A stretch of 32,000 bases of DNA from Promethearchaeia archaeon (GTDB lineage: Archaea > Asgardarchaeota > Lokiarchaeia > Sigyniarchaeales > SOKP01), in contig JAWOFX010000064.1 of the NCBI GenBank assembly GCA_046497275.1, positions 1 to 32,000 on the forward strand, in the 5' to 3' direction. Below are positions 221 to 7,287 of this stretch, piece by piece. How positions within the stretch are numbered: position 1 is the stretch's first letter; each line of letters opens with the position of its first letter. A model generated the notes under the pieces. It had not been told where the DNA came from, did no database searches, and was given only the letters and a program-made list of their open reading frames with translations. A program made the position numbers and the translations under genes.

Positions 221-1633
221 TTAAAATTGGGATTCATCAATCTGAGGCATATCTGCATCATTTATGGATTTATTAATCCTCTCTTCTGATAATTCAAAGT
301 TTTCTAAATCACCGGTCATAAATTCTTTGTACGCCAGAAGGTCAAAATAGCCGTGACCACTGAAATTGAAAAGTATTGTTTTGTTTTCATTATTTTCTTT
401 TGCTTTAAGTGCTTGATCCATAGCTTCTTTAATAGCATGATTTGTTTCGGGTGCAGGTAAAATCCCCTCTGCTTTTGCAAATAACATTCCTGCTTCTATA
501 ACTTCAAGCTGATGATGCATAGTTACGTCAATTATTCCATTATTATATAAATTAGATACAATAGGAGCCATTCCATGATATCGTAATCCCCCAGCATGAA
601 TTGGACTAGGTATGAAATTATGACCGAGGGTGTGCATCTTTAGGATAGGTGCTTTCTTGGCAGAATCCCCGTAATCCCAAGTATATTTTCCTTTACATAC
701 ACTCGGACATGCCCGAGGTTCAACTCCAATAATCTGAATATCTGGACTATCACCACGAATTTTATCTCGTGCAAATGGAATCATTAATCCAGAGAAGTTT
801 GACCCTCCCCCCATACAACCTATGACGATATCGGGATATTCGATACCAGATTTTTTGAGTTGTATTTGTGCTTCCTGACCAATGATGGTCTGATGAAGAC
901 AAACAAAATTAACTACACTTCCCAAGGAATATCGGATTTTGTCACTCCTTAAACTATGTTCGACCGCCTCTGAAATAGCGATACCTAAGCTCCCAGGATG
1001 TTCTGGATCACTTTCATAATAACTTTTTCCAGATTCTGTAAATCTTGAAGGAGACGCATGAACTTCGGCATCATATGATCTCATTAGTATTTTTCGTCCA
1101 GGCTTTTGAATAAAACTTGCTCTTACCATATAAACCGTACATGTGATATTAAATAAGGAACATCCATATGAAAGACCAGATCCCCATTGCCCTGCTCCAG
1201 TCTCCGTCACCAGCTCATTTATTCCATCCGCTTTGGCGTAGTATGCTTGAGCGAGCGCGGTATTGGGTTTATGTGAACCCGTTGGAGAGACTGATTCATT
1301 CTTATAGAATATCTTTATTTCTTCTCCCTCAACACCCAATTCTTTTTCTAGTCCATACGCTCTATGAAGTGGAGTGGGTCTATGTGATCTTGCATAAATC
1401 TCTCTTAAATCTTTTGGGATCGGTATAGTGGGTTCTTGGGATACTTCTTGAATAACACATTCCTTCGGAAAGATGGCAGCTGCCATTTCAAAGGGTGCAG
1501 GCTTTCCATTCATCGGGTTTATTAAGGGTGTCATAGGTGTGGGTAAATCGGGTAAAATATTTATCCACTCTTTTGGCACTTCCTTTGGATCTAACAAAAT
1601 TCTTGCATTAAAATAATCTGTCACTTTAAACAC
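221..1633 (-). CDS. trpB2: TrpB2-type PLP-dependent tryptophan synthase beta chain (stand-alone)
   Basis: PLP-lysine motif SPTGSHKPN, TETGAGQWG, GGGSNF, HAGGLRYHG, PAPET, NFSGHG. The long N-terminus (W.NI.PDLP) is typical of TrpB2. No trpA is adjacent. GTG start. Confidence 0.95.
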   Translation of the reverse strand: MFKVTDYFNARILLDPKEVPKEWINILPDLPTPMTPLINPMNGKPAPFEMAAAIFPKECVIQEVSQEPTIPIPKDLREIYARSHRPTPLHRAYGLEKELGVEGEEIKIFYKNESVSPTGSHKPNTALAQAYYAKADGINELVTETGAGQWGSGLSYGCSLFNITCTVYMVRASFIQKPGRKILMRSYDAEVHASPSRFTESGKSYYESDPEHPGSLGIAISEAVEHSLRSDKIRYSLGSVVNFVCLHQTIIGQEAQIQLKKSGIEYPDIVIGCMGGGSNFSGLMIPFARDKIRGDSPDIQIIGVEPRACPSVCKGKYTWDYGDSAKKAPILKMHTLGHNFIPSPIHAGGLRYHGMAPIVSNLYNNGIIDVTMHHQLEVIEAGMLFAKAEGILPAPETNHAIKEAMDQALKAKENNENKTILFNFSGHGYFDLLAYKEFMTGDLENFELSEERINKSINDADMPQIDESQF

Positions 1634-1732
1634 GTTTTAATATTTTTTAAATTTTTATGTGTCTCATAATAAAATTGGAAATCAATAGTATTAATGCACA
1701 TAAATAAAGTTTTAATATCTTGAAAATGAATC

Positions 1733-1767
1733 AAAACAAAAGAAAAAAGACATTAATCGAAATAGTC
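1733..1767 (-). terminator. Weak hairpin plus long U-tract between the Trp-rich uORF and trpB2 (candidate attenuator terminator)
   Basis: mRNA GACUAUUUCGAUUAAUGUC (1767-1749; about 6 bp with one bulge) is followed immediately by UUUUUUCUUUUGUUUU (1748-1733). Confidence 0.55.
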
Positions 1768-1780
1768 CAATGCAAAGGCG

Positions 1781-1846
1781 TTATTGCCAACGCCAAGGCC
1801 ACTGCCAACACCAGAAATTATTTTTAACAGTTGCCATCTTATTCAT
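1781..1846 (-). CDS. Trp-rich leader peptide (uORF) MNKMATVKNNFWCWQWPWRWQ, candidate trp attenuation leader
   Basis: Manual translation: ATG at 1846, second in-frame ATG at 1837, five TGG codons among the last ten sense codons, TAA at 1781-1783. Same strand as and directly upstream of trpB2. Confidence 0.8.
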   Translation of the reverse strand: MNKMATVKNNFWCWQWPWRWQ

Positions 1847-1881
1847 TTTATAAGGACTATTTATTTTTAGTTGTTTTTCAG

Positions 1882-1890
1882 TATTTAAAA
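1882..1890 (-). promoter_or_regulatory. Candidate TATA box for the leader-trpB2 transcript
   Basis: Minus strand TTTTAAATA predicts a start site near 1860. AT-rich context makes this uncertain, and a second candidate TATAAAAA lies at 1899-1906. Confidence 0.35.
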
Positions 1891-2578: not shown

Positions 2579-4900
2579 ATGATAACAACCAGAGAATCTA
2601 TCAATTATCAATTTTCATTAATATATGGATATTCATCGCCTAATCATGAGAATTTGATGGTTGGAGATATAATAAGTCCAGGAAATCTAACAAAAAATCT
2701 AATAAATGAGTTATCAAAAGATGTAATTAGATATTTAACTGAATTTAACGCAATGCTGCGGGATTATACAGGATCTGAATTATACTCTGTTGAATTCGAA
2801 TTATTAAATTATAAAGAAGGAGATTATAGTATTAAAATTTATCCAAAATCAATGTTACTAATGCCTGGAAACTATAAAGAATGTGAAAGTCTTATGCTTG
2901 CATTAAAACCCGAAACAGGATATCTGAACGTTCATAAGTCTAGTCAATCAATAAACGGGATAAGTAAGCTATTTTTCGAAGTTGAAGATTATGCCAATCA
3001 TCCTAATCTTGATTATAATGAAAAGAAACAAGTTTATAAAACATTTGCTACAAGATTTAGTAAAAAATTGTTTGGTGAATTAATAGAAGATAAATGGAAT
3101 AAGAAATTAATTGGTTTATCTGAATCATTACCCACAGATAAAAAAAATTTAAAAATTTATAGCAAGCTAAAATCTAATTTAGAAATAAACTGGTATAAAA
3201 CACCCTTTGAAATAAAACTTTCACAAATTGAGTTCGGAAAAATTAGAGATCCTTTTGAAGGGAAGTCCGCAATTGAACACCTTAAATTTAGTATAACAGA
3301 GCCGAGTGCGGGATTTGTGATTGAAAAAACGTTAAAATTAGGGTCTAATTTACTAGATTTAGCAAATTGGGGTACAATTGATGAATTTCAAGAAAGAATA
3401 ATTAAGTTTATCTTAAAAAAAACGAGAGATACAATTTTATTAGACTTAGATAACAAATCTGAGATCCAAATAATTTCTCTATTTGACAATTTTCTTAAGC
3501 AAATAAAACAGAAATTAGAAGAATTTACTATATATTGTAAAAAATTTCTGAAAACCGGAGAGAAAGGAGATCTTGCTGAAATTTTATTAAAATTAAAAAA
3601 ATTTCTTAAAGAGCAGAATCAAAATTATAGACAAGAAGAAATTCAAGATATATACATTATTCTTAGGGATTTTATAAAAAAAACAATAAGTAAAAAACAA
3701 GAAATTAGAGCAAATGATTTTAATTCTTCTTTTAATTATTTTTCTGAATTGATAAATAGATCTTTTAATAAAATTCAAGAAAGTCTACCGAAATATCTTT
3801 TAATCAGAAGACTTAATAAAACAGTTCAAACCTTAATTAAAAAACTTAAAAGTGAATTTGATAAGGAACAAAAGCCTGTTAAGATATTGGGTTATAGATT
3901 TATTGAAAAATTTAGAGATCATCTTCTAAAAATGATTAATAAATATTCAATCTTAACAGAAAAAAAAATAGTATTTGAAAGGGATATTATAAAAAAGAAC
4001 TTTATTAGATTAATCTCAAACTATTTAGATGATTTTTTTGATAATGTCCAATTAGGAATAGCAGAAATTATTTCTTTTGCTGAAATAAACACAGATGAAC
4101 ATTCGAAAAATATATCTCATTATATTGAAGATTTCAAAAAGTTCTCAGATGAAATACATTTCCTTTTAAGTTATATCCTAAGATATTCCACTATAAATAG
4201 ATTTATAAAAGATAAGCCAGATAAAGACATCTCGGACCCTGTTTCTTTCTCAACTAAATTTCATAGATTTCTAGAAAAAAGATTAGCAGGGATCGATTTA
4301 ATTTGGAAATCTGTAATTTTAGATTGGATAAAAAATTATGCTAAACTCTTTTTTAAATTAGAAGTCAATAGAATGTGGACAATTAATGAAATTTATACTG
4401 ATTTTATCAACTATCTCGAGGAGAAGGAGAAAATATCTAGAAATCCCAATAGTTTCACAGAATTCCTGGACACTTTCATAGCTAAAGTTGAAAATGAAGA
4501 TGAGAAGAAAACTCTAATGAAGTTTTACGAGCAATATAAATATTTTATTGGAGTTAATACTGAATTTCCTAAATACTTACGTGAAAAAATTGAAACTCAA
4601 ATTAAAAGTTTAAATTTAGATTGGGAAAATGATTTTCCAATAGAAATTTTATCTTCAAATGAGAATTCAAATAGTTTTTATGAATATATAAGAGAAAATG
4701 AACTAAAATATTTTTCAAATTTAATCCCTGTTCCATCAACCATGATATTAAAACATAAACTAAACAATGAGGAGTTAGAACTCTTTAAGGGAGATTTATT
4801 CCAAGTGTTTGGTTTTAAGAATTGGGGAGTTGGAAATATTGCATTAGATTTATCTGATAATTTTCAGGAAGTATATAGAGAGTGGATAAAAGAATTATGA
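2579..4900 (+). CDS. Large hypothetical protein (773 aa), mostly helical/coiled-coil centre
   Basis: Long ORF with codon usage like its neighbours; no motif recognised. Confidence 0.85.
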   Translation: MITTRESINYQFSLIYGYSSPNHENLMVGDIISPGNLTKNLINELSKDVIRYLTEFNAMLRDYTGSELYSVEFELLNYKEGDYSIKIYPKSMLLMPGNYKECESLMLALKPETGYLNVHKSSQSINGISKLFFEVEDYANHPNLDYNEKKQVYKTFATRFSKKLFGELIEDKWNKKLIGLSESLPTDKKNLKIYSKLKSNLEINWYKTPFEIKLSQIEFGKIRDPFEGKSAIEHLKFSITEPSAGFVIEKTLKLGSNLLDLANWGTIDEFQERIIKFILKKTRDTILLDLDNKSEIQIISLFDNFLKQIKQKLEEFTIYCKKFLKTGEKGDLAEILLKLKKFLKEQNQNYRQEEIQDIYIILRDFIKKTISKKQEIRANDFNSSFNYFSELINRSFNKIQESLPKYLLIRRLNKTVQTLIKKLKSEFDKEQKPVKILGYRFIEKFRDHLLKMINKYSILTEKKIVFERDIIKKNFIRLISNYLDDFFDNVQLGIAEIISFAEINTDEHSKNISHYIEDFKKFSDEIHFLLSYILRYSTINRFIKDKPDKDISDPVSFSTKFHRFLEKRLAGIDLIWKSVILDWIKNYAKLFFKLEVNRMWTINEIYTDFINYLEEKEKISRNPNSFTEFLDTFIAKVENEDEKKTLMKFYEQYKYFIGVNTEFPKYLREKIETQIKSLNLDWENDFPIEILSSNENSNSFYEYIRENELKYFSNLIPVPSTMILKHKLNNEELELFKGDLFQVFGFKNWGVGNIALDLSDNFQEVYREWIKEL

Positions 4901-7287
4901 TTAGCGGGATAAAAAGAAAGTCAACAGCGATGGAAAGTGCATTTAGATACTTTCAAACTGTTGATTTAATCATCTCTCATTTTAAGAGAGAAGCCGACAA
5001 AGAGAAGATTTTTGAGATATTAGATGAGACATTTACATTAAAAGATTTACTAGTTTCGACAGCAGCAATTCATATTTATCATAACTTAGGGATAAGAGTT
5101 GAACAAGCAATTGATATTAAGGAGGGTACTGTTGAATCCTCAAGAAAGCAAGAAATATTGGAGAAACAAAATATATTTGAGGAAGTGAAATATCTTCTTA
5201 AAGATTCCTTTGAATCTGAAATGGATATCTTTATGAGGATAATTGAACTTGAAAATAGATTTATTAATTTATTAATAGATTTAAGAGATCCAAACATTTC
5301 GGAAAATCAAAAACAAGAAAAATTGAATGAAATAGATCAATATTTAGAGAAAGAATTATTGAAATTTATTTTGGAATATAAAATCTTTAATTTTTATGAT
5401 CTTATAGGAGATTTAATAGGTTATACCAATGAAGTGAAAAAAGATATTTTAGATGTTAGTGGAGATTTCAAAGACTTGTCAATTGAATTAGAAAAAAGAC
5501 TTAAACAAGAGGAAAAAGAGGATAAATACATAGAATTATCAACCTTGAATAGAATAATTGAAAAAATAAAAACCAATTTTGAGTTCAAATCTTATCAAGA
5601 ATTAAAAATGCAGGCCATGCCTGTTAGAATGATTAAAAAAGAAATAATTAATCATGATTTGGAACGTTTTCCAATCTCTATACCTGGTTTGATGGCATTT
5701 AAAGAAGCAAATCGATTAAAAGAGAGATTAATAAAAAAAATTGAGGAAAATTTAGAAAAAAAGATAGATTATCAACATTTTGAAGAAGAGATTTTCTCGT
5801 TTATGAAAAAGGAGATTATTGAACAATTAAATACAAATCCAAATGACTTTATATATTTTTTACAAAATCTTAATGAAGAGAATTTCGAGGAGATTATTTA
5901 TACACTTCACAAATATGGTATTTTTAATATTTTAGAATTAATCAATATCGACGATGATTTGGCTAAAAAAGTAAAAGAAAATATGATTCGGTATAATATT
6001 AAAAAATTCGATATAATCCAACTTAATGATCGCAAAAAAAATATTTTAATAAAAACTAAAAAGGTATTAAATGAGATAAGCAGGAGCAATTTACAAAAAA
6101 TAGAGGGCATTAATGATGAAATTATAGATTTAAAGAAAATAATAAAAGAGGAAAAGAATAATAATTTGGAATTATGGAAATTGATTGAAAATAAAACTGG
6201 TTCTGATTATATTGAACTTAAAGAATTTATAAGAAAGAAAGAAATTGTGGATAAAATCTTTTTAGAGAATTTGGGAATAATGAATTATTCTCAAATATTG
6301 TTATTACTGGATTTTGAGAATATTATCAATAATTTGGTTAAAGATACTTTCTTTTATATCTTATCAAAAATTTTAAGACAATTGAGCAGAATTATCGAAG
6401 CTTTTTTAAAAATTACGAATGAAAAAACCCTTTATCTTTTAGCTTTTAAAAAGATGTATAATACAACAGAATCAGAAGATTGGGTATGGATAAAACTCGA
6501 GGAATTGATAATTCAGAGATTAATTAAGAGACAAAGTGAATTAGTAGTCTTATTTAATGCCTATGACAGACCCTTTTTAATAAACGGATTTATATTAGCA
6601 AGATTAACTGAATCATCATTAGAAAAAGCTAGAAATATTCTAGAGAATAAAATAAGTCCCATATATGAAGATATTAAACCAATAAAACTTAAAAAAGATT
6701 TGATCTCTCCAATATCCTATTGTTTAGCTTATGATTTAATTAAAAGGTTTGAAAATTATGAAGAATTAAGAAAAGAAAATGTACTAAAAATAATGGAAGA
6801 AAAAGTAGAGCAAAAAGAAAAAATTAAAAAGGAAATAAGAAGAAATCAAGAAAAAAATACATTCAATTGGATAGAGAGAAAAATAACTTCCTCTTTAATG
6901 AGGATAAATAGCCCAGGGATAAATCCAAATCAATTATATTGGACTGAAAGGGATACAAAAATTACTTCAGATAATATAAAACTTCATAGTGAATTAAATG
7001 GAGATACTTTTGATTTGTTTATAGAATATTTTCAATTTGCTATTGATAAAATCGAATCTCTCTATTCTGATTTGAAACTTCCTAATCCGGAAAAAATCAA
7101 ATTTATAATAAGGAAGATTATCAACGTTATTTTAAAAGAGAGATTTGCGCATGAGCCTAATCTTGAAGAAATCAACAATATGTTGGATGGGGAAAGATAT
7201 GAAGTCGCTAAACAAATTGCAAAAAAGATTGGGACTATATTAGATAAAGCACTATATTCTAAGTTTAAATTAAAAAGAAAATCATAG
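4897..7287 (+). CDS. Large hypothetical helical protein (about 796 aa)
   Basis: Long ORF. Start placed at ATG 4897, which overlaps the upstream TGA (ATGA), rather than GTG 4882. Confidence 0.85.
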   Translation: MISGIKRKSTAMESAFRYFQTVDLIISHFKREADKEKIFEILDETFTLKDLLVSTAAIHIYHNLGIRVEQAIDIKEGTVESSRKQEILEKQNIFEEVKYLLKDSFESEMDIFMRIIELENRFINLLIDLRDPNISENQKQEKLNEIDQYLEKELLKFILEYKIFNFYDLIGDLIGYTNEVKKDILDVSGDFKDLSIELEKRLKQEEKEDKYIELSTLNRIIEKIKTNFEFKSYQELKMQAMPVRMIKKEIINHDLERFPISIPGLMAFKEANRLKERLIKKIEENLEKKIDYQHFEEEIFSFMKKEIIEQLNTNPNDFIYFLQNLNEENFEEIIYTLHKYGIFNILELINIDDDLAKKVKENMIRYNIKKFDIIQLNDRKKNILIKTKKVLNEISRSNLQKIEGINDEIIDLKKIIKEEKNNNLELWKLIENKTGSDYIELKEFIRKKEIVDKIFLENLGIMNYSQILLLLDFENIINNLVKDTFFYILSKILRQLSRIIEAFLKITNEKTLYLLAFKKMYNTTESEDWVWIKLEELIIQRLIKRQSELVVLFNAYDRPFLINGFILARLTESSLEKARNILENKISPIYEDIKPIKLKKDLISPISYCLAYDLIKRFENYEELRKENVLKIMEEKVEQKEKIKKEIRRNQEKNTFNWIERKITSSLMRINSPGINPNQLYWTERDTKITSDNIKLHSELNGDTFDLFIEYFQFAIDKIESLYSDLKLPNPEKIKFIIRKIINVILKERFAHEPNLEEINNMLDGERYEVAKQIAKKIGTILDKALYSKFKLKRKS

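Follow-up and report, generated by a model that had tools for sequence, protein, structure and literature searches.

A long-range, co-varying RNA helix in the leader of a probable tryptophan attenuator upstream of trpB2 in an Asgard archaeon

Leader-peptide attenuation is a textbook bacterial mechanism that relies on coupled transcription and translation, and the Asgard archaea, the closest prokaryotic relatives of eukaryotes, carry a polymerase and a termination factor of eukaryotic type. The leader analysed here stands directly upstream of trpB2 in a window of 32,000 nucleotides (nt; the whole stretch of DNA that was analysed, positions 1 to 32,000 of the forward strand of contig JAWOFX010000064.1, assembly GCA_046497275.1) from a Promethearchaeia archaeon (Asgardarchaeota, Lokiarchaeia, Sigyniarchaeales, SOKP01), and is compared first with the trpL leader of E. 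coli and Salmonella (Rfam RF00513, Trp_leader). Like trpL, it holds a short open reading frame (ORF) rich in tryptophan (Trp) codons that leads Trp-synthesis genes, a hairpin containing Trp codons with the stop adjoining (segment 1:2 of trpL) and a U-tract downstream, and in both systems charged tRNA-Trp is presumably sensed via ribosome position. Unlike trpL, it is archaeal and without a G+C-rich stem next to the U-tract, its five Trp codons alternate (W-x-W-x-W, with the first fixed at codon 9) where trpL has two adjacent ones, its conserved pairings are nested (a long-range helix, P1, around hairpin 1) rather than mutually exclusive, and its terminator is probably an oligo-U tract acting with the factor aCPSF1. 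An earlier note on this DNA, made from the sequence alone, had already remarked that the layout differs from the 1:2/2:3/3:4 scheme of E. coli, and this was borne out, P1 and hairpin 1 being nested and not in competition. An Rfam search of the leader gave no match, Trp_leader included, even at E<=10, and a literature search returned no report of leader-peptide attenuation in archaea. The leader is probably a ribosome-based Trp sensor of a kind undescribed in archaea.

Bacterial trpB2 attenuators (Bacteroidota and others) precede genes of the same family, and the pattern W-R-W-R-W-Q is common to the peptides of two of them (L061 and L110); theirs, however, have an obvious G+C-rich hairpin directly before a run of U5-7, which the Asgard leaders lack. 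Classical Trp attenuators were seen at the bacterial loci L052, L061, L068, L110 and L047 (Bacteroidota and one unclassified bacterium), two of them with a W-x-W-R-W-R-W-Q leader. The tnaC system is comparable in that it depends on a factor which requires bare nascent RNA in the wake of the polymerase and can be kept out by ribosomes or RNA structure (PMC11616081); the factor dependence of the Asgard leader is presumed, in contrast to that of tnaC. Moreover, tnaC responds to free Trp, relying on one key Trp residue, and switches on a catabolic gene, whereas the Asgard leader has many Trp codons and precedes biosynthetic genes, and tnaC-like sensing of free Trp was dropped because the regulated genes are biosynthetic. 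Mycobacterial poly-Cys upstream ORFs, short or leaderless (bioRxiv 10.1101/834739), are likewise dense in the codons of one amino acid and in control of the genes of its pathway; these are bacterial.

The start of the leader ORF (Table 1) was chosen by comparison with relatives, a second in-frame ATG being present upstream at 1846-1844. Trp codons occupy ORF positions 9, 11, 13, 15 and 17 (1813-1811, 1807-1805, 1801-1799, 1795-1793 and 1789-1787), so that 5 of 18 codons encode Trp in a genome of only 30% G+C. A first set of 27 unique trpB2 loci with a Trp ORF was assembled from 40 related genomes and the GTDB collection. A 76-nt DNA probe of the leader gave matches in 86 of the 135 family genomes and in 11 of the 13 genera; among the further matches fetched, the ORF is carried by 57 of 60, and 52 of these 57 stand 141-174 nt ahead of trpB2. 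In seven other genomes the leader was also encountered ahead of trpD or of a trp operon: five of these cases were confirmed by protein match (L125, L127 and L128, the first three to be found, and L163 and L169) and two were assigned by context only (L148 and L182). The trpD leaders were spotted with a genome-wide pattern of four TGG-N3 repeats, which is otherwise swamped by Gly-repeat genes; at L125, L127 and L128 the downstream ORFs have anthranilate phosphoribosyltransferase domains, and a TrpB1-like gene lies farther along the same contigs. Leader-bearing loci thus total 87 (27+57+3), upstream of trpB2 or trpD.

An ATG or GTG is present exactly eight codons ahead of the first Trp codon at 20 of the 27 loci of the first set and 45 of the 57 added later, most of the exceptions having Cys (UGU/UGC) at codon 9. 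The last Trp codon is followed within 0-3 codons by the stop, and the residues between the Trp codons are variable (R, Q, P, A, H, L, C), with some synonymous codon use. This combination of a fixed start distance, a stop near the last Trp and free spacer residues and synonymous codons is, as read from the sequences, the signature of a translated Trp-sensing leader rather than of a protein-binding repeat.

The leader transcript is predicted to start near 1860 +/- 3, on the basis of the TATA box (Table 1) and the usual archaeal TATA-to-start spacing of 23-27 nt, and the motif AACTTTTTAWA also occurs upstream of the leaders of relatives. With this start, 5 to 9 of the 9 base pairs of P1 would be transcribed. 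The earlier note had described P1 as a perfect 9-bp complement between the predicted 5' end and a segment just before the U-tract, and this pairing proved exact, with a duplex energy of -9.6 kcal/mol and a place in the minimum free energy (MFE) fold, for which z=-2.4. In this one sequence the helix is not beyond chance, since 52 of 200 shuffles of the AT-rich sequence gave an equally good helix in the same search space. It is convincing because the arms of relatives differ in sequence and nevertheless keep their complementarity.

Because the P1 arms lie in differing registers between lineages, covariation was assessed by an alignment-free swap test, in which a 38-nt window around the leader start of one species was folded against the 32 nt past the stop of another for all pairs of species; RNAalifold on the raw MAFFT alignment of 27 leaders gave no consensus structure. 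The own combination was better than the swapped one for 75 unique leaders (-10.55 vs -7.79 kcal/mol, p<5e-5), for the 27 leaders (-10.28 vs -7.69 kcal/mol, p<5e-5) and for 12 representatives, one per lineage (-10.3 vs -7.2 kcal/mol, p=8e-5), whereas control windows farther downstream showed no such preference (-5.26 vs -5.58 kcal/mol, p=0.93), nor did a second control of the 27-leader run (p=0.62). The arms are of unrelated sequence in different lineages (UGUCCUAU/AUAGGACA, UGGUUUAG/CUAAACCA and AUUAAGGAA/UUCCUUAAU) and are also rebuilt in two trpD leaders (e.g. CGACCGAAU/AUUCGGUCG). Their positions are constant: the 5' arm overlaps the start codon or directly precedes it and the 3' arm directly follows hairpin 1, except in the L019 lineage, in which the 5' arm is shifted into the ORF. 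In the best-aligned subgroup of 13 sequences, 85% of P1 pairs are kept vs 35-46% for slid partners, mostly through conservation of sequence. On the evidence of the swap tests and the rebuilt arms, P1 is a real, evolutionarily maintained pairing.

Hairpin 1, which the earlier note had also proposed, was recovered with exact coordinates in the MFE and centroid folds (-8.6 kcal/mol) and spans the codons from Trp4 through Arg, Trp5 and Gln to the stop. Folding predicted a counterpart, whose loop or 3' arm contains the stop, in nearly all of 35 leaders, a set that includes five leaders from other families of the order. The stems differ by lineage (GUGUU/AACAC, UUGGC/GCCAA, GCGACCG/CGGUCGC), and in the swap test the own combination was preferred (-11.5 vs -10.5 kcal/mol for cross combinations, p=0.001); by these comparisons, hairpin 1 co-varies across the family.

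Hairpin 2, the second hairpin of that note, has a 3-bp base, an energy of -2.1 kcal/mol alone and a pairing probability of 0.00-0.13 in every context folded, and is not a credible structure. The short alternatives GCAA/UUGC and CAAU/AUUG, which had been thought to compete with hairpin 1, do exist as 4-bp matches, but such matches are trivial by chance and are absent from the folds. More plausibly, the UUGCAU of the conserved motif UUUGCAUUGG would pair with the leader start region (AUG...GCAA): in duplex folds it does so with AUGGCAA (pairing P1b). Between the start codon and the CAU triplet the pairs are AU 8, GU 2 and GC 1, with 97% of cells paired, and compensatory support for P1b comes from a single leader in which a GUG start is matched by CAC in the motif, and two G-U wobbles also agree with it. 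The idea that, as a general rule, UUGCAU is covered by a ribosome terminating at the stop was dropped, as it holds here and fails in the other subgroup.

The effect of ribosome position was modelled by folding the nascent RNA from 1862 to the part outside the polymerase at 1743 with blocks of 28 nt, representing ribosomes whose A site occupied each Trp codon in turn or the stop, or whose P site occupied the start. The only element that responded was hairpin 1: it persisted while the A site was on Trp1 or Trp2 and disappeared for A-site positions from Trp3 through to the stop. Hairpin 2 did not form in any state. The idea that ribosome position sets a switch between P1 and hairpin 2 was thus not borne out, P1 (-9.6 vs -2.1 kcal/mol for hairpin 2) remaining at a probability of about 0.9 throughout. 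What survives of the proposed mutual exclusion is that P1 and hairpin 2 share nucleotides 1767-1760; the exclusion has no consequence in the folds, where hairpin 2 is negligible and P1 and hairpin 1 are nested and coexist. P1 may act as an anti-terminator by another route, but not, according to the folds, by competition with hairpin 2.

A run of T5 or longer was found within 75 nt past the stop in 22 of the 27 leaders, vs 33% of random windows of this genome, and the U-runs past the stop cluster at +23 to +38. In leaders with a clear P1, the first run of at least five U follows the P1 3' arm at a median of 10 nt (interquartile range 7-15), which places this arm at about -13 to -30 relative to the last U. 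The distance is too great for a bacterial terminator stem, and the RNA there is just out of the polymerase. In the excerpts consulted of two accounts (PMC8716108, PMC11616081), archaeal termination is described as the work of a U-tract and aCPSF1/FttA, with no terminator hairpin; aCPSF1 is stated to act jointly with U-tracts (PMC8716108), and the pre-termination complex with FttA holds RNA nt -20 to -25 in its nuclease centre, with nt -25 to -28 positioned on the stalk of the RNA polymerase, mutual exclusion of ribosome and FttA being proposed there (PMC11616081). Full-length aCPSF1 scored above the cut-off in 19 of 25 related genomes.

Evidence at the RNA level consists of assembled contigs of salt-lake metatranscriptomes, in which the depth of the trpB2 contig is 43-77 in three runs and 9-33 in a fourth. 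A trpB2 contig of run X4 ends, adapter-joined, at 194 inside a T7 tract, which indicates that ends in U-tracts occur in this organism, and one low-depth contig (depth 8) bridges the leader U-tract from 1830 to 1662, compatible with read-through. Contig cover is nil over 1841-1920 in four runs and over 1681-1920 in three, which proves nothing. A contig of run X4 (contig 2) that is identical to 1662-1830 continues with 47 unrelated AT-rich bases, representing either a strain variant downstream of palindrome G (Table 1) or a chimera, and two short chimeric contigs of run X8, joining 1752/1757 to 198/193, look like U-rich cross-matches.

The leader combines an ORF rich in the codons of one amino acid, placed ahead of the cognate biosynthetic genes and kept across relatives in its start, regulatory codons and stop, with a U-tract of at least five at the candidate termination site. 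A stable hairpin immediately before the U-tract is lacking (the adjoining pairing is the weak hairpin 2, and P1 lies a median of 10 nt upstream), and no mutually exclusive terminator and anti-terminator chosen by the ribosome appeared in the footprint folds. As these two features define the structure of the trpL family, the leader would work like a leader-peptide attenuator and is not a member of RF00513.

Our reading is that this is the RNA fold of a ribosome-sensed Trp attenuator built for an archaeal terminator. That the leader is a ribosome-sensed Trp attenuator in general is likely; the whole statement, with shielding of the nascent RNA by P1 included, is assigned a probability of roughly 0.4, and the shielding role by itself is put forward tentatively, at no better than that. 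In the proposed course of events, a short transcript from about 1860 would encode the 18-codon, five-Trp peptide and enter the oligo-U tract before trpB2. When charged tRNA-Trp is scarce, the first ribosome would stall at Trp codon 9 or 11 with its trailing edge at about +10 and bar a second ribosome from the start codon without obstructing the 5' arm, the start region or hairpin 1, so that the whole leader could fold as the 3' arm emerges from the polymerase at the U-tract. The folded RNA, with the 3' arm about 13-30 nt behind the active site, would deny aCPSF1/FttA its single-stranded entry and thereby permit read-through into trpB2. With Trp plentiful, ribosomes passing continuously across the start region, hairpin 1 and the stop would keep the leader unfolded and the 3' arm single-stranded, and the transcript would end at the U-tract. 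A further role of hairpin 1 may be to keep ribosome and polymerase in step, like the 1:2 hairpin of E. coli trpL. A more specific formulation is doubtful: a form of archaeal amino-acid-sensing attenuation in which a long-range 5'-3' helix would hide nascent RNA from a CPSF73-type factor at oligo-U, and in which Trp1 would be fixed at codon 9 so that the stalled ribosome blocks re-initiation while the arms stay free.

The fold could also play the opposite part, P1 and hairpin 1 forming without a ribosome and aiding pausing and termination at the U-tract, much as bacterial attenuators do by default, with a ribosome stalled on Trp3-5 melting hairpin 1 and so allowing read-through. It fits such a role that hairpin 1 is the element altered by ribosome position, that the fully folded state is the MFE structure without ribosomes, that a U/C-rich stretch follows hairpin 1 in most leaders, and that in distant families with two Trp codons only these codons form the 5' arm of the hairpin, with a U-run 9-12 nt later. 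A ribosome at the first hungry codons (Trp1-2), however, spares hairpin 1 and P1 and would thus bring about termination under starvation; the median of 10 nt between P1 and the U-run is too far for a terminator stem of the bacterial type, and archaeal termination proceeds by U-tract and aCPSF1/FttA, not by a hairpin, in the excerpted accounts cited above (PMC8716108, PMC11616081). We consider the opposite role unlikely, and hold the same view of a function of P1 outside the termination decision, in which it would join the ends of the short leader RNA of about 115 nt, limiting translation to one round by sequestering the start region and/or stabilising a small RNA with a U-rich tail. P1 does link the extreme 5' end, including the start codon region, to the last nucleotides before the U-tail, it is formed in all ribosome states in the folds, and the RNAs of bacterial trp attenuators can go on to serve as small RNAs (PMC7968998); yet the fairly constant spacing from 3' arm to U-run and the rebuilding of P1 in many lineages suggest a tie to the terminator, and the closing of the ends offers no explanation of Trp sensing.

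The remaining explanations carry far less weight. Binding of the UGG repeats, 6 nt apart, by a Trp-activated RNA-binding protein (TRAP-like) or by tRNA-Trp (T-box-like), instead of reading by the ribosome, would account for the strict UGG-NNN periodicity and for the C that follows UGG in about 90% of cases, but is highly improbable in view of the conserved in-frame start at a fixed distance, the stop right past the last UGG, the lack of an Rfam family match and the lack of a known candidate protein; the T-box-like reading of UGGN was dropped. Close to negligible is the scheme of the earlier note, in which hairpin 2 and the U-tract form the terminator and P1 is an anti-terminator that takes the 5' arm of hairpin 2: although both pairings use nucleotides 1767-1760, hairpin 2 has -2.1 kcal/mol and a probability of at most 0.13 against -9.6 kcal/mol for P1, and no equivalent hairpin before the U-run was noticed on reading the sequences of relatives, among which no systematic search was made.

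Several observations weigh against the attenuator with a shielding P1. The first concern the ribosome: whether the ribosome is at a Trp codon, at the stop or initiating on ATG 1837, P1 stays at a probability near 0.9, so that any control of P1 must be kinetic or steric, and in the subgroup of this genome its 5' arm lies 16 nt upstream of that ATG, outside the footprint of an initiating ribosome. The helix itself is weak in roughly one leader in four, mainly in one subclade with a shifted UUGGC/GCCAA hairpin 1: of the 75 leaders, 18 have an own-duplex energy above -8 kcal/mol and 13 have one above -6 kcal/mol. In the 13-sequence subgroup, column shuffles reach the observed pairing in 120 of 500 cases, which is not significant, the pairing being kept mostly by sequence conservation. 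No significant asymmetry between sense and antisense strands was found for P1 (p=0.28); that of the whole leader (p=7e-5) may be compositional, as the sense strand is G/U-rich. The transcription start is a prediction from the TATA box. To our knowledge, no experiment on termination in Asgard archaea exists, and full-length aCPSF1/FttA was not recovered in this assembly, in which only sub-threshold matches were obtained. The assembly yielded only a beta-CASP nuclease of 435 aa that has no KH domains, together with an MBL/beta-CASP protein of 800 aa whose N-terminal part of 380 aa is unassigned (loci C54:2719-4017 and C118:106967-108208). Finally, trpB2 RNA contigs stop at 1646 (adapter-joined, study P3) and 1650 (study P4), 22-26 nt ahead of the GTG and about 24 nt past the TATA-like TTTTATTAT. 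These ends are a weak hint of a proximal trpB2 start or processing site at 1646-1650, downstream of the attenuator; if they reflect a promoter, the attenuator would govern only an extra stream of transcripts, and read-through may be a minor source of trpB2 mRNA.

Table 1. Features of the leader region and trpB2, in window positions.
Feature	Position	Strand	Description
Predicted archaeal TATA box of the leader promoter	1883..1890	-	TTTTAAAT inside AACTTTTTAAATA; consensus TFB-recognition element (BRE)/TATA element, read from sequence
P1 5' arm	1854..1862	-	AAAUAGUCC; at or near the predicted RNA 5' end; in MFE and centroid folds; co-varies across lineages
Leader ORF	1781..1837	-	MATVKNNFWCWQWPWRWQ-stop; 18 codons, ATG at 1837, stop at 1783-1781
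Hairpin 1	1777..1794	-	GGCGUUG (1794-1788), loop GCAA (1787-1784), UAACGCC (1783-1777); 7-bp stem
Conserved motif	1767..1776	-	UUUGCAUUGG; between hairpin 1 and P1 3' arm; seen in two alignments of relatives
P1 3' arm	1760..1768	-	GGACUAUUU; complement of the 5' arm; 18-26 nt upstream of the last U of the first U6 run
Hairpin 2 of the earlier note	1749..1767	-	Unsupported by folds
U-rich tract, candidate archaeal terminator	1733..1748	-	U6-C-U4-G-U4; read from sequence
Palindrome/hairpin G	1659..1699	-	41 nt, between U-tract and trpB2; invariant centre AUUGAnnYCCAAU; overlaps TATA-like TTTTATTAT (1674-1666)
trpB2	221..1624	-	TrpB-like pyridoxal phosphate (PLP) enzyme of TrpB2 type; NF009057 638 bits, TIGR01415 587 bits; probable GTG start at 1624

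Palindrome G may be an RNA hairpin or a promoter/operator. It was found at 26 loci, including four trpB2 loci without a leader and two trpD leaders, the same hairpin being predicted in nearly all, and its arms co-vary (GUG/CAC; CAU/AUG to CGU/ACG to UGU/ACA); no preference for folding of the sense over the antisense strand was detected (p=0.25). An interaction between the UUGCAUUGGA motif and the G loop was considered and dropped for want of co-variation; a kink-turn in G was dropped too. An alternative partner for the CAC(AU) that closes G could be an (AU)GUG farther downstream, immediately ahead of the trpB2 start, as exemplified by ACACAUCUUAAGAUGUG at loci L018 and L032 (region 1630-1662 on the minus strand here), and judging from these sequences a second switch beside the ribosome-binding region is possible. 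At some trpB2 loci the Trp-codon ORF is lost: L013 retains the 3' arm of hairpin 1, the CAUUGG motif and G, and L008, L033 and L043, which have no Trp ORF, retain G alone.

The window is AT-rich, as is the genome (30.4% G+C). The genes upstream include one of the roadblock/LC7 type and large ORFs that are rich in lysine and have no Pfam family. Two overlapping ORFs of 773 and 801 aa (2579-7287 on the plus strand) are rich in K, E, I and N and match no Pfam family. The trpB2 gene is stand-alone, and its orthologues begin at an ATG aligned with the probable GTG start here. TrpA and indole-glycerol-phosphate synthase (IGPS) were not found in the genome, which is 98.9% complete and contains trpB2 as its one TrpB-like gene, so that TrpB2 is the only Trp-making enzyme detected in it. 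A lone TrpB2 is most simply explained by indole salvage, and the organism is apparently auxotrophic for Trp, with indole salvage as its only source. The conserved, co-varying fold offers concrete arms for mutation and so makes ribosome-polymerase coupling in archaea testable, together with the effect of RNA structure on FttA/oligo-U termination and the control of indole salvage in Trp auxotrophs.

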